NCBI GenBank assembly: GCA_043800725.1
Contig: JAZDMR010000024.1
Location: 1-53,838, forward strand
Direction: 5' to 3'
Length of the DNA: 53,838 bases
From: a bacterium
GTDB taxonomy: Bacteria > Patescibacteriota > Patescibacteriia > HK-STAS-PATE-3
Positions 17,374-30,039 of this stretch are shown here, in pieces. The notes beneath the pieces were generated by a model. It was not told the origin of the DNA. It saw only the letters and a list, made by a program, of their open reading frames with translations, and searched no databases. The number at the start of each line of letters is the position of its first letter. Position 1 is the stretch's first letter. Both the position numbers and the translations under genes were made by a program.

Positions 17374-18120
17374 TTATTTGGTTAATACTTTCACGCCCTG
17401 GCCAGTCACGGCAATGGTATGCTCAAAATGAGCGCTAATTTTTCTGTCTGCGGTCACCACGGTCCAGCCGTCGTCTAAGGTTTTCACTTGCCAGTCTCCT
17501 AATGTCAGCATGGGTTCAATAGCCAAGACCATGCCCGCTTGAACAATCGGCCCCTGGCTAGCTGGGCCAAAATTGGGAATTGATGGATCTTCGTGCAGCA
17601 TATGCCCCACCCCATGACCGCTTAAGTCGCGTACCACGCCGTAACCCTGCTGTTCGGCAAATTCTTGTACTGCGGCGCCTACCCGGCCCAATGGCTGGCC
17701 CGCCTGAATGGCGGCAATCCCTAAGCTTAGAGCTTGTTTGGTAGTGCTAATCAATTTCTCAGCTGATTGCGAAACCCGGCCGATGGGAATTGTCCTGGCC
17801 ATATCAGTGATTAGATTTTTATATTTTATCCCAATGTCAATACTTAGTACATCACCCTCCCTAAGTACGGTTTTTTGATCAGGAATGCCATGAACCACCT
17901 GATGATTAATCGAAGTGCAGATTGCTCCGGGATATCCGCGATAGCCGAAAAAAGCCGATTCTACCTGGGCCTGTTTCATTAATGCCCTGGCCTGTTTATC
18001 CAGCTCTTCTGTTGAAACGCCGGGCCGGGATAGCCTGACCAGCTCATTTAAAATACCGGCCAAAATATGCCCGCCCTGCTGAAGATTTTCAATCTCTTGC
18101 TCTGTTTTTAATCGACTCAT
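17374..18120 (-). CDS. map: methionine aminopeptidase type I
   Basis: VHGIP, GHGVG..LHEDP, IEPM, SAHFEHT. Confidence 0.97.
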   Translation of the reverse strand: MSRLKTEQEIENLQQGGHILAGILNELVRLSRPGVSTEELDKQARALMKQAQVESAFFGYRGYPGAICTSINHQVVHGIPDQKTVLREGDVLSIDIGIKYKNLITDMARTIPIGRVSQSAEKLISTTKQALSLGIAAIQAGQPLGRVGAAVQEFAEQQGYGVVRDLSGHGVGHMLHEDPSIPNFGPASQGPIVQAGMVLAIEPMLTLGDWQVKTLDDGWTVVTADRKISAHFEHTIAVTGQGVKVLTK

Positions 18121-18811: not shown

Positions 18812-20086
18812 TTAAAAACCTTCATAATCGCGAACTGTCAGCTGCGCGTCGATTTGTTTAACAGTTTCAATAACCACGCTGACCACGATCAGCAAGCTGG
18901 TGCCGCCCACAATCAATGATTGAGTCGGCGTAAATTGCTGCATTATGCTGGGCAAGACAGCTACCACACCTAAAAATAAAGCGCCGCCTAAGATAATGCG
19001 ATTAGACACATAGCTTAAATAGTCCATGGTATTGCGGCCAGGCCTGATTCCAGGTATGAAGCCTCCTTGTTTCTGCAAATTTTCAGCTATCTGGTTGGGA
19101 TGAAAAACCACTGAGGTATAAAAATAGGTAAAAGCAAAAACTAAGATAAAGTAGAAAATGGCATAAACCGGACCTTTCTGGTAGGAACTAACAAACCAGT
19201 TGGCAATATTGGCAATATTTGGCGAAGTTGAACTGACAAAAAACTGAGCAATCAAAGATGGAATCAATACCAAGGAAACCGCAAAAATTATCGGAATTAC
19301 TCCGGCCTGGTTTACGCGCAAGGGCAGGTGCGTATTTACTCCGCCGTAAACCCGCGTGCCTCTGACCCGGCGCGCATAGGATACCGGTATATTTCTCTGC
19401 GCCTCGGTTACAAAGACGACTCCGGCCACGGTTACTAGAGCGATAAATATGAAGATAGCAAAGGTAAAAATTTGCGCCGGATCAAACGTGGCAATTGACT
19501 GCTGAATTTGCAGGGGTATCTGCGCCACGATACCGGCAAAAATGATCAAGGAAATACCATTGCCCACTTTCTGTTCGGATATCAACTCTCCCAGCCACAT
19601 TAAAAAGACGGTGCCGGCGGTAATCGTGATAAGGGCAGTGGCCAAATCAAAAGCTGATAAATCGCCGATAATGCCCTGGCCCTGCTGGCGCAATAAAATT
19701 ATTGTGCTATAGCCCTGGAGCACGGCCAGGGGGATGGTTAGTAAGCGCGTCCATTGATTAATCATCTTCTGTCCCCGCTCGCCTTCCTGCTGTATCGCTT
19801 GCAGTTTTGGAATAATCATGGTCAGCAGCTGAAAAATAATCGAAGCGGTAATATAAGGACCGACTCCCAGCATGACAATAGAAAAGTTTTCCAAAGCGCC
19901 GCCGGAAAATATATTTAACAGTCCTAAAAACTGATTAGAGCCGAAAAAGTCCTTTAACTCGCCCACGTTAACGCCAGGTATGGGGATATGGGCAGCAATC
20001 CTAAAAACAACCAGAATCCCCAGAACGATTAGGATTTTTTTACGAACCTCTCTAATCCGCCAAATTTGTGATATTTTTTCCCACAT
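18812..20086 (-). CDS. secY: preprotein translocase SecY
   Basis: LGVGPYITASII, GNGISLII, GIRPG, GGTSLLIVV. Confidence 0.98.
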   Translation of the reverse strand: MWEKISQIWRIREVRKKILIVLGILVVFRIAAHIPIPGVNVGELKDFFGSNQFLGLLNIFSGGALENFSIVMLGVGPYITASIIFQLLTMIIPKLQAIQQEGERGQKMINQWTRLLTIPLAVLQGYSTIILLRQQGQGIIGDLSAFDLATALITITAGTVFLMWLGELISEQKVGNGISLIIFAGIVAQIPLQIQQSIATFDPAQIFTFAIFIFIALVTVAGVVFVTEAQRNIPVSYARRVRGTRVYGGVNTHLPLRVNQAGVIPIIFAVSLVLIPSLIAQFFVSSTSPNIANIANWFVSSYQKGPVYAIFYFILVFAFTYFYTSVVFHPNQIAENLQKQGGFIPGIRPGRNTMDYLSYVSNRIILGGALFLGVVAVLPSIMQQFTPTQSLIVGGTSLLIVVSVVIETVKQIDAQLTVRDYEGF

Positions 20087-25952: not shown

Positions 25953-26297
25953 TTATTTCTTGTCTCCGCTTAATTTAGTCTGAGCTGTTTCAGTTTGCTT
26001 TTTCTGAGCTACGGCCGCGGCTTGCTCTGTTTCGCGCTGCATCTTACCGCCGTGTTTAACAAACTTTCGAGTTGGAGAAAATTCTCCTAAACGATGACCA
26101 ACCATGTTTTCCACCACAAAGACATTAATATGATCTTTGCCATTATGGACGCCAAAAGTGAAGCCGACCATTTCCGGGGTAATTACCGAGGGTCGCGACC
26201 AGGTTTTAATAACCGTATTATCGCCCTTTTTCAGGTTGTGAATCTTCTTGATCAGTTTGTGATCGGTCCAGGGACCCTTTTTTAAGCTTCTCGACAT
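25953..26297 (-). CDS. rpsS: 30S ribosomal protein S19
   Basis: [25 protein letters not shown]. Confidence 0.98.
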
Positions 26298-26301
26298 ATG
26301 A

Positions 26302-27132
26302 TTATTTCTTTCTTCGTTTGAGTATTAAACGATCGCTGTATTTGGGACGGCGAGTATGTACGCCTAAAGCTGGCTTGCCCCAGGGTGTTTTGGGGTGCTT
26401 TAAGCCGATGGGCTGAACGCCTTCACCGCCGCCATGGGGATGATCTACCGGATTCATAGCTTTGCCTCGGACGGTGGGACGGACACCTCTCCAGCGCATA
26501 CGGCCGGCTTTACCTAAGCGAATATTACTATGGTCAGTGTTGCCTACCTGGCCGATTGAAGCCCGCGACATCTTGGGAACCAGGCGAATTTCGCCTGAGG
26601 GCATTTTCAGCTGAGCATTATCGCCCTCGACAGATAAAAGCGTCGCCATTAAACCGGCTGAGCGAACAATCTTTCCGCCGTTGCCCGGCATGAGTTCGAT
26701 ATTATGCACTAATAATCCGGTTGGGATCAGAGCCAAAGGCATGCGGTTGCCATTCTTGATATCCACCCTTTTTTGTGAAGAGACAACTGTGTCCCCTGCT
26801 TTCATATCCATGGGGGCCAGAATATAGCTTTTTACTCCGTCAGAATATTCAATTAAGGCAATATTGGCTGAACGGTTTGGATCGTATTCTATAGACTTGA
26901 TAGTTGCCGGCATATCCAGCCTGTCTTGCAAAAAGTCAACCAGGCGATAAAAGCGCTTGGCTCGTCCGCCTTTGTGGCGCACAGTGATCTTGCCCTGGCT
27001 GTTGCGTCCGGCATTGGATTTCAATGCGCTAATCAAGCGTTTTTCTGGACGCTTTTTTGACAGCTCTCGCGTATCAACCACTGAGGCGTGGCGGCGGCTG
27101 GGCGTTGTTGCTTTGTATTTACGAATTGCCAT
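26302..27132 (-). CDS. rplB: 50S ribosomal protein L2
   Basis: [22 protein letters not shown]. Confidence 0.98.
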
Positions 27133-27134
27133 AT

Positions 27135-27683
27135 TTAAGCTTCATATAGATCAATTGATTTGCCTTCCGGCAGAGTGACAATCGCTTTTCTCCAAAACTT
27201 GGTAGAGCCTGTGGTACGGCCGTAGCGAACGTGTCTGCCTCGGACATTGATGATGTTTATTCTAGTGGGTTTGATTCCGTAAACCGTTTCAATTGCTTTA
27301 TAAATAGTCGGTTTATTGGCTCGAGGATGAACTTCGAATACATACTGCCTCTGAGTGCCGAGCATGCCCGTCTTTTCCGTAATTATGGGACGTAGCAATA
27401 GGCGATGCGATTCATGAAGATCTTCCGGTTTGCGTCCGGATTTAGCCTTGGCAGGCTTTGGCTTGTCCCTGTCTGGAGTGGCCTTTTTATCGTCTTTCAG
27501 TTCGTCTTTTTTGCCCTCGCTAGTCCGGCCAGCTGAAGGAACAGACTGAAATTGCTTTTTTTTCTCTTCCTCTTTTTTATCCTTGGCTTTTTTATTAGCC
27601 TCAGACTCAGCCACGTGGCGGGGCTTTTTCTGGCCCAGCTTCTTGGCATCTTCCTTTTTGCGAAAGCGATCAAAAAATCCCAT
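27135..27683 (-). CDS. rplW: 50S ribosomal protein L23 with ~90-aa N-terminal extension
   Basis: Core RPIITEK...ANK...KAIVTL; position between rplD and rplB. Confidence 0.95.
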   Translation of the reverse strand: MGFFDRFRKKEDAKKLGQKKPRHVAESEANKKAKDKKEEEKKKQFQSVPSAGRTSEGKKDELKDDKKATPDRDKPKPAKAKSGRKPEDLHESHRLLLRPIITEKTGMLGTQRQYVFEVHPRANKPTIYKAIETVYGIKPTRINIINVRGRHVRYGRTTGSTKFWRKAIVTLPEGKSIDLYEA

Positions 27684-27687
27684 ATGC

Positions 27688-28326
27688 TTATTTAGACACG
27701 AGAGTCTTGTCTATTACTGCTAAGGAAGTCTTGGCCATTAATAATTTGCCGGCCTGAAGAGTATCTACTACGTTTAAACTGTCAGCTCGAGCTACTGAGA
27801 CTTTTTCTAAATTCTTGCACATTCTTTTTAGGTCAGCATTGTTAGCGGACGGCACTATCAATACCCGACCGGCCAATTTATGTTTCTTTAAATAATCTGA
27901 CAATGTTTTGGTTTTGACTGGAGTTAAATCCAGACTGTCTACTAAATAAATTTTTTGCTCGGCCAGTTTCGCGGATAAGACCATGGCTAAAGCTTTGCGC
28001 TTAGCCTTGATATTAATTTTTTTTGAAAAATTACGGGTATTGCGGGGACCAAAGGTCACACCGCCGCCGATCCAAATCGGCGATCGACTGGAGCCATGTC
28101 GAGCTCGGCCCGTGCCTTTTTGCTTCCAAGGTTTGGCGCCGCCGCCTCGGACATCGGCTCGCGTTTTGGTATGTGCGATCGGGGCGCGCTTATTCGACTG
28201 CTGAATTGTCACGGTTTGATGCACTAAATCATTGTTCCATTTGATATCAAACACCTTAGGATTAACTTTTACAGTTTCCGTTTGCTTGCCTTCTGCATCG
28301 TGTACTGATAGTTCTAATTTGGCCAT
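27688..28326 (-). CDS. rplD: 50S ribosomal protein L4
   Basis: KPWKQKGTGRARHGS, GGGVTFGP. Confidence 0.98.
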   Translation of the reverse strand: MAKLELSVHDAEGKQTETVKVNPKVFDIKWNNDLVHQTVTIQQSNKRAPIAHTKTRADVRGGGAKPWKQKGTGRARHGSSRSPIWIGGGVTFGPRNTRNFSKKINIKAKRKALAMVLSAKLAEQKIYLVDSLDLTPVKTKTLSDYLKKHKLAGRVLIVPSANNADLKRMCKNLEKVSVARADSLNVVDTLQAGKLLMAKTSLAVIDKTLVSK

Positions 28327-28679
28327 TAGTCTATGTCCTCTTCTTCTATGGGGTCAGTTTTAATTAAAAATATCTTTTTTTTAAATCCGCCTCGTTCATT
28401 GCGTTTCTTTTCCTGCAAATCGATCAGCTCGCTGTGGCGGAAACCATGGAATTTTTCCATAGCGTACAAAACTTCGTATAAATCAATTATTTCATTTTTT
28501 ATGGCATTCTCATCAGGAGCATTTACTAGTTCTTTTGCCTCTTCAACAAGTTTTTCATTTAACGCTTTGACATAATCAATATCATCCAGGATTTTCACTT
28601 CCGCCCGCATGCCATCTTCTTTGACGATCTCAGGGATAAAGTCGCGCACTAATTTGTTGTAAGTAATGCTTTTACCCAT
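28326..28679 (-). CDS. MazG-like nucleoside triphosphate pyrophosphohydrolase
   Basis: YNKLVRD.IP, KLVEEA.E, EIIDLYEV, KR.ERGGF; start placed at ATG 28679 overlapping the rplC end. Confidence 0.85.
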   Translation of the reverse strand: MGKSITYNKLVRDFIPEIVKEDGMRAEVKILDDIDYVKALNEKLVEEAKELVNAPDENAIKNEIIDLYEVLYAMEKFHGFRHSELIDLQEKKRNERGGFKKKIFLIKTDPIEEEDID

Positions 28680-29682: not shown

Positions 29683-30039
29683 TTACATTTTTATTTCTAT
29701 GTCCACGCCAGCCGGCAGGCTCAGACTCATCAGAGAATCAACAGTCTTTGGTGTGGGGTCAAGAATATCGAGAAGTCTTTTATGAACTCGCATCTCATAC
29801 TGATCGCGGGCGTTTTTATGCACAAACGTAGAACGTAAAACCGTATATTTGGTCTTTTCGGTGGGCAGAGGCACGGGGCCTTTTACCCGAGCGCCGGTTT
29901 TCTCAGCTGTTTCAATAATTGTCCGCGTTGATTGATCAACAATTTTGTGATCATAGGCGCGAATTTTAATACGAATCCGCTGTGAACCGACTTCTGTCTC
30001 GGTTTCTGCTGTCTTGGCTGGCTTCTTGATATCCGCCAT
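29683..30039 (-). CDS. rpsJ: 30S ribosomal protein S10
   Basis: [21 protein letters not shown]. Confidence 0.98.

Follow-up and report, generated by a model that had tools for sequence, protein, structure and literature searches.

The ribosomal protein uL23 of a patescibacterial genome (assembly GCA_043800725.1; Patescibacteriota, Patescibacteriia, HK-STAS-PATE-3) consists of three parts, namely a 10-residue N-terminal peptide of the type found in the signal recognition particle (SRP) receptor FtsY and in EIIA of the phosphotransferase system (PTS), a flexible linker of net positive charge and 30-90 residues (roughly 78 here), and an ordinary L23 core at the rim of the exit tunnel. The corresponding gene, rplW, is located in contig JAZDMR010000024.1, of which positions 1 to 53,838 were analyzed and are hereafter called the window. 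We propose that the extension is a ribosome-borne membrane-targeting peptide, a reading that is plausible to us while falling a little short of probable, because the sole sharply conserved element is the free end of a variable disordered arm, because FtsY and EIIA begin with this same element, and because the arm hangs from a protein at the tunnel exit. Membrane binding, tethering of the ribosome and a contribution to targeting are thus suggested by likeness to known membrane-targeting N-termini.

The gene lies between rplD and rplB, all on the minus strand, which is the expected place of uL23, and the operon follows the standard S10 order (tuf, rpsJ, rplC, an extra open reading frame (ORF) of 117 amino acids (aa), rplD, rplW, rplB, rpsS, rplV, rpsC onward). 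The L23 domain PF00276 covers residues 95-178 (94.7 bits, cut-off 30.8), and the NCBIfam L23 models match residues 92-181 (NF004363 at 95.7, cut-off 81). A Pfam search of the protein (E up to 0.01) returned no family besides PF00276, and neither an SRP54_N/GTPase NG domain nor a Tim44-like domain was found; a protein database search with residues 1-90 gave no usable match. In an AlphaFold2 model built with a 28-row alignment, the block means of the predicted local distance difference test (pLDDT) were 87-96 over the core and 46-59 over residues 1-80, and the extension was modelled with low-confidence turns of helix at residues 3-5 and 9-12, together with one helix rich in K/E at residues 29-44, as its only secondary structure. 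Glu103, which is invariant in the alignment of relatives, is presumably the glutamate that docks trigger factor and SRP in E. coli uL23. An earlier note on the window, made from the letters alone, had described a 182-aa L23 in which MGFFDRFRKK and about 80 charged residues precede a normal core, and the ORF, the PF00276 match and the AlphaFold2 model all bear this out. Its description of the extension as Lys/Glu/Asp-rich low complexity holds for the linker, where 55% of residues 11-88 are charged (net +9), but overlooks a second conserved motif, KKQFQSVPSAG. This motif, F..VP[SGA] or M..LY[SGA], is present in 37/179 extended L23s and takes the form K-K-x-F-x-x-V-P-S-A-G here and S-M-K-D-L-Y in other clades. 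Some L23s of 118 aa start just ahead of it.

Regarding the start of translation, the rplD-rplW junction reads TAA-GCAT-ATG, and the ATG stands 4 nt past the rplD stop, as noted earlier. From residue 1 there is no further Met until M106, which is inside the core; the earlier statement that no other Met precedes the core therefore stands, but the in-frame alternative starts at GTG codon 24 and TTG codon 96 had gone unmentioned. No Shine-Dalgarno sequence was evident before any candidate rplW start, nor before rplB. Proteins starting with Met-Gly lose Met1 to methionine aminopeptidase, and the same rule predicts that Met1 of uL23 would be removed, leaving an N-terminal Gly.

The first ten residues are widely conserved. 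A HMMER search against 1.84 billion representatives gave 5840 matches at E up to 0.001, and conservation was counted over the query together with the best 150 of these 5840 representatives (clustered at 50% identity; n=151). A start of the form M-[GSA]-[ILFVW]-[ILFWM] was present in 123/151 sequences, 5 further sequences carried the motif within 30 residues of an annotated start that was probably mis-called, and the other 23 were mostly shifted motif variants or L23s without an extension. The per-position consensus of the 123 sequences is M-G-[LI]-F-D-[KR]-F-K-K-K, and past position 11 only the K/E/D composition is retained. The small residue after Met and the hydrophobic residues at positions 3, 4 and 7, flanked by basic ones, are arranged as in targeting N-termini of the FtsY and EIIA-Glc type. 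Similarly, a word-index search returned 75 relatives, many of them 118-187 aa long, with N-termini repeating M-G/S/A, two hydrophobics, D/N, K/R, F, K/R and K, and with a following stretch that differs among them in both length and sequence. The linker of relatives spans 16-80 residues (median 53), its net charge has a median of +6 and is positive in 90%, and extensions of only 20-28 residues still retain the peptide. In the matched DNA of five genomes the synonymous codons differ and the peptide residues are the same. Within the genome studied here, a regular-expression scan for the motif gave 2 matches, namely rplW and an internal TTG 169 codons into a frame, so that rplW is the sole plausible gene to start with it. 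These comparisons indicate that the peptide is under selection and that the extension is translated from the upstream ATG rather than from a downstream start; on both points the earlier note, which had named lack of conservation and a downstream start as outcomes that would speak against it, is supported.

Experiments have established that both FtsY and E. coli EIIA-Glc are anchored to the membrane by an N-terminal helix. When 185,579 bacterial and archaeal genomes, one per species, were scanned with a degenerate DNA pattern for M-G-[LIF]-F-D-x-F-x-K, at least 120 loci were obtained, an arbitrary subset containing 121 ORFs that begin with the motif. ORFs shorter than 80 aa or preceded by more than 70 open codons were dropped (19), which left 102/121. 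Among the matches listed, 34/102 were SRP54-type GTPases (PF00448), 29 with SRP54_N, and PTS_EIIA_1 (PF00358) was present in 6/102, while phmmer pointed to 35 FtsY-like proteins, bacterial as well as archaeal, among the listed ORFs of at least 30 aa (of 121). Many of the listed FtsY ORFs are built as the motif, a long charged A-domain and then the NG domain. Furthermore, 13/13 FtsY proteins read from Anaerolineales, which were chosen for their NG domain irrespective of the motif, started with a close variant. The FtsY-like character that the earlier note had read in the GFF-basic start is thus corroborated, and by its residues the uL23 N-terminal peptide is of the FtsY type.

The two proteins share the start M-G-[LFI]-F-D-[KR]-F-[KR]-K, followed by a long charged low-complexity stretch and then by the functional domain. 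In contrast to FtsY, uL23 has no NG (SRP54_N and GTPase) domain and the cargo of the peptide is uL23 itself; moreover, in short FtsY forms the helix runs on into the N domain. With EIIA-Glc, uL23 shares the N-terminal motif, as seen in the six listed ORFs mentioned above, but in EIIA-Glc a short linker joins the helix to the domain, and EIIA is a sugar-transport and regulatory protein, not a ribosomal one. A single L23 was present among the 121 listed ORFs (L077, 37% identical), and its 1.0-Mb genome (G336) has no PF00448 match. The record is titled 'uncultured Gammaproteobacteria bacterium', yet the protein is an extended, motif-bearing L23 of the type seen in the candidate phyla radiation (CPR), and the taxonomic label looks wrong.

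With respect to physical properties, no other part of the extension reaches the hydrophobic moment of the peptide (0.52 in an 11-residue window, 0.64 over 9 residues), and the peptide also has a net charge of +3 and three aromatics at i, i+1 and i+4. Over the 123 N-termini the mean hydrophobic moment was 0.44, compared with 0.31 for shuffles. The statistics of peptide amphipathicity are modest.

The distribution of the extension was followed in a phylum sample of 301 genomes from 248 genera, in 283 of which L23 was matched. Extensions were scored from the first ATG for the best 30 of the 283 loci; 13 carried an extension of 35-83 residues and 17 did not, and the motif was present in 13/13 of the extended proteins. 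The extension is thus a bimodal trait, being either missing or present together with the motif. Within the class, each of the 16 genomes examined (G000, which is the genome studied here, G025, G058, G260 and 12 others) encodes an extended L23 that bears the motif or a near variant of it. Stop-to-stop frames of 150 listed L23 loci measured at most 110 in 58, 111-124 in 14 and at least 125 in 78, although the open-frame length overstates the extension, as in G207, G059, G325, G111 and G183, where long frames belong to ordinary L23s of 93-97 aa. Named carriers include Candidatus Nomurabacteria (the closest, 56% identical), Candidatus Kerfeldbacteria and 'Patescibacteria group', and SecY agrees. 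Of the exact motif-pattern matches inside the phylum, 5/7 are L23 N-termini. A broadened motif scan found matches in only 7/301 genomes, which makes it too insensitive to reveal other carriers in lineages with a short L23.

One relative, G116, has a short, lysine-rich L23 N-terminus without the aromatic motif. The same genome encodes a Met-rich ORF of 91 aa (L177:1255-1527, minus strand) of no known family that starts M-G-I-L-D-K-F-K-K and is located directly downstream of secF (L177:1603-2502, PF02355). This is a single case, and no such Met-rich ORF after secF was found in G000, where secF was not found either.

SRP components were searched for in the same genomes. PF00448, which detects both Ffh and FtsY, had no match in the genome studied here and was positive in 14/14 control genomes. 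TIGR00959 and TIGR00064 reached only 13 and 18 bits in this genome, the cut-offs being 473 and 261, and phmmer and tblastn searches of all six-frame ORFs together with a motif scan of this genome, which has no masked bases, revealed no SRP-type GTPase. The SRP RNA (RF00169) was not found in this genome, and across the class genomes, G000 included, RF00169 was detected in 0/41 and RF01854 in 0/40. PF00448 was above cut-off in 0/41 class genomes, some of them closed and rated 99-100% complete. Neither this genome nor about 40 class relatives thus yielded ffh, ftsY or ffs, the genes whose absence the earlier note had suspected. SecA (PF07517) was found at E ~1e-120 in 18/21 genomes searched (18/20 relatives), which indicates that the profile search is able to see conserved proteins in these genomes. 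Neither SecA nor SecF was found in the G000 assembly, probably owing to an assembly gap, as argued for SecA by its presence in 18/20 relatives. G000 encodes SecY, methionine aminopeptidase, YidC (266 aa) and trigger factor.

A number of candidate SRP genes were examined and rejected. In the phylum sample PF00448 was above cut-off in 2/301 genomes (G208 and G105). The FtsY of G208 (G208:C4:458-1042, L017), the sole strong match in the phylum, is 82-97% identical to FtsY of Anaerolineales, sits at the end of its contig and has a foreign P-loop N-terminus joined to it in frame, and it was regarded as contamination or a chimeric assembly, not as a CPR FtsY. The match in G105 (25.9 bits) covers only model positions 3-56 and is a P-loop match; likewise, the sub-threshold matches in 15/41 relatives (18-22 bits) cover the P-loop region only. 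The CPR accessions in PMC8321541 belong to SecA and not to Ffh. The SRP genes in PMC10768705 have APY09 locus tags and occur in the context of comparisons with the host-only (XH001n) control, and we read them as genes of the host rather than of TM7x.

The earlier note had further expected that the extension would anticorrelate with SRP genes across the CPR. No anticorrelation could be demonstrated, SRP being missing with or without the extension (13 vs 17 of the best 30 loci); as there are no SRP-positive members in the sample, none is measurable, and the co-distribution of extension and SRP loss may rest on one evolutionary event. The related suggestion that the extension substitutes for SRP and FtsY is favored in part, by the conserved FtsY-type peptide and by the SRP searches described above. 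It does not hold as a general rule, since 17/30 SRP-less relatives have a plain L23, and the extension is thus neither necessary nor a general replacement of SRP.

L23 normally docks SRP, trigger factor and SecY. If the extension is a membrane-targeting peptide, it would fold on membrane contact into a short amphipathic basic-aromatic helix and enter the interface of an anionic bilayer. Hung from uL23, it could keep the ribosome close to the membrane and its exit port turned toward the bilayer, and a nascent signal or transmembrane segment would then be likelier to meet SecYEG or YidC without SRP, Ffh or FtsY. SecY, which is encoded in the same ribosomal gene cluster, would be a likely destination of a membrane-tethered ribosome. 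A broader version can be envisaged, in which, after SRP loss, a large part of Patescibacteria moved an FtsY-type peptide and a charged arm onto uL23, leashing every ribosome constitutively to the membrane with its exit port toward the translocon; we put this forward tentatively and think it rather unlikely as it stands. Such a leash would be the bacterial equivalent of the mitoribosome tethered through mL45 and would represent a third, receptor-free mode of co-translational targeting. Lineages whose L23 is plain may then carry this peptide on a different export-linked protein, for which the Met-rich ORF behind secF in G116 would be an example.

Several observations weigh against a membrane tether. 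The extension cannot be the sole SRP-independent route, given that many SRP-less relatives have a plain L23 (the 17 extension-free loci among the best 30 in the phylum, and the 58/150 listed frames of at most 110 aa). The helix is very short, with about two turns and three hydrophobic residues, and when each N-terminus is compared with its own shuffles, just 14% have a hydrophobic moment above the 95th percentile. Among the motif ORFs listed, 62/102 are neither FtsY nor EIIA and belong to mixed families, mostly of unknown localisation. The A-domains of FtsY are net negative in 18/19 of those listed, whereas the L23 linkers are net positive, which speaks against a simple transplant of the FtsY A-domain, and a net-positive arm could suit anionic lipid but equally ribosomal RNA (rRNA). 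In addition, L22, S19, L3 and S10 in the window also have charged tails, and the G000 assembly is 91.8% complete.

Some of these points keep alive a structural alternative, in which the arm, rich in lysine, and the two short motifs that it carries would rest against the surface of the ribosome and, as other extensions of ribosomal proteins do, stabilise or assemble the reduced CPR large subunit near the exit, with no membrane role. We consider this unlikely, albeit the strongest of the alternatives. The positive linker charge in 90% of relatives, the second conserved motif inside the linker and the charged tails of neighboring ribosomal proteins are all consistent with it, as is the binding of rRNA by the N-terminal extensions of eukaryotic and archaeal uL23. 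Moreover, uL23 is listed among the CPR proteins with lineage-specific regions in the accessible text of a study that cites rRNA stabilisation (Tsurumaki et al., 2022; PMC9297842). However, the linker varies in length and sequence and only the extreme N-terminus is fixed, which fits a tethered ligand better than a surface strap; the AlphaFold2 model shows no ordered contact, the other charged tails in the window have no terminal aromatic motif, and the fixed peptide heads FtsY and EIIA, which are not rRNA binders. The same likeness to the FtsY N-terminus would also be expected if the peptide docked a specific membrane partner (SecY loops, YidC or SecA) and not lipid. The N-terminus and A-domain of FtsY are reported to contact SecY, and SecY, YidC and trigger factor are encoded in the genome. 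G116, whose L23 has no motif, carries the motif on the ORF after secF, which is again in line with a protein partner. Nevertheless, the peptide heads unrelated proteins (EIIA and many others), which argues for a generic target such as lipid, and docking of this kind appears to us somewhat less probable still than a role on rRNA.

It is also conceivable that the basic-aromatic peptide folds back into the tunnel vestibule of idle ribosomes and serves in hibernation or quality control. The tail of mL45 is reported to behave in this way in mitoribosomes, the uL23 peptide is anchored beside the exit on a linker long enough to reach inside, and a basic peptide would be drawn to the rRNA-lined vestibule. 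Such a plug leaves the match to the FtsY and EIIA N-termini unexplained, and we regard it as improbable. Finally, if translation truly began at the GTG (codon 24) or the TTG (codon 96), the frame ahead of it would not be made and the extension would be an annotation artefact. These in-frame codons and the missing Shine-Dalgarno sequence leave some room for this, some long frames upstream of L23 in relatives (G207, G059) are non-coding, and a caution that starts are predicted only is given in the literature (Tsurumaki et al., 2022). Against it, no stop interrupts the frame over 95 codons, conservation of the first ten residues extends over hundreds of clusters despite synonymous codon change, the ATG is coupled to the rplD stop, and lengths are bimodal with the motif in every extended protein of the 30 best loci. 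We thus believe that an artefact is highly improbable and that a membrane-targeting peptide remains the preferred reading.

Precedents for ribosome-membrane bridges that do without SRP are known, and of the systems compared with uL23, mL45/Mba1 comes nearest in function and the FtsY N-terminus nearest in sequence. Mitoribosomal mL45 and yeast Mba1 act as a membrane tether at the exit tunnel in SRP-poor translation. The logic is the same as that proposed here, in that a ribosome-resident element beside uL23, uL24 and uL29 keeps the exit port at the membrane without SRP. However, mL45 is a separate Tim44-like protein, while uL23 contains only PF00276, and the relation is one of analogy, not homology. 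In bacteria, YidC proteins whose C-terminal tails bind the ribosome take over part of the role of the SRP receptor (Seitl et al., 2014, cited in PMC4508563). There too a charged flexible tail forms an SRP-independent bridge between ribosome and membrane, but the polarity is reversed, with a membrane protein reaching for the ribosome, and the YidC of this genome is short.

Parts of the picture are already published, namely the loss of SRP in Parcubacteria and the bare existence of an N-terminal uL23 region in some CPR. Some CPR bacteria were reported to have an amino-terminal uL23 region, with unverified start codon (Tsurumaki et al., 2022, RNA 28:1041). This region corresponds to the stretch that precedes the L23 core in some of the CPR genomes studied here (13/30 of the best phylum loci, 16/16 in the class). 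In contrast to our analysis, the accessible text of that study gives no motif, function or SRP link, the words 'signal recognition' occurring 0 times. A literature search, with supplements and most subscription journals outside its reach, found nothing on a conserved uL23 peptide, on its likeness to FtsY or EIIA, or on a link to SRP loss.

The features of rplW and of the genes around it are listed in Table 1. Between rplC and rplD lies the 117-aa ORF, which is 153 aa long when counted from an upstream TTG. It has weak Pfam matches to DUF5376 (17 bits) and PRA-PH (phosphoribosyl-ATP pyrophosphohydrolase; 16.8 bits) and no NCBIfam family; the PRA-PH match hints at a MazG/PRA-PH-like fold. L22 has about 55 extra C-terminal residues forming a lysine-rich tail, S19 and L3 also have lysine-rich C-terminal tails, and the extension of S10, about 17 residues long and N-terminal, is not rich in lysine. 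A terminal hydrophobic motif is missing from all of them.

Table 1. Position of the parts of rplW and of other genes within the window.
Feature	Coordinates	Strand	Remarks
rplW (uL23)	27135-27683	-	182 codons and stop; PF00276, NCBIfam L23 equivalogs
rplW codons 1-10, MGFFDRFRKK	27654-27683	-	conserved FtsY/EIIA-type peptide; candidate membrane-targeting sequence
rplW codons 11-88, charged linker	27420-27653	-	predicted disordered
rplW codons 42-52, KKQFQSVPSAG	27528-27560	-	second short conserved motif within linker
rplW codons 89-182, canonical L23 core	27138-27419	-	contains Glu103 of the TEK motif
rplD stop TAA (27688-27690) and 4-nt spacer before rplW ATG	27684-27690	-	
rplD	27688-28326	-	PF00573, 201 bits
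rplB	26302-27132	-	start 2 nt after rplW stop
secY	18812-20086	-	424 aa; PF00344, 353 bits
Methionine aminopeptidase	17374-18120	-	PF00557, 156.8 bits
117-aa ORF	28329-28679	-	
L22	25466-25951	-	
S19	25953-26297	-	
L3	28672-29424	-	
S10	29683-30039	-	

Few cellular machines are regarded as universal, and SRP with its receptor is one of them. The only published idea that we found on how this phylum inserts membrane proteins without them comes from a study in whose accessible text ffh and ffs were undetected in any Parcubacteria genome and a YidC variant together with a small cell size, or volume, was proposed (Nelson and Stegen, 2015; PMC4508563). The peptide on uL23 offers a concrete molecular handle on how an SRP-less phylum inserts its membrane proteins. 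If the proposed role is false, what is left is still a short linear motif, widespread and sharply conserved, on a core protein of the ribosome. If it is true, bacterial ribosomes can carry their own membrane address, as mitoribosomes do.

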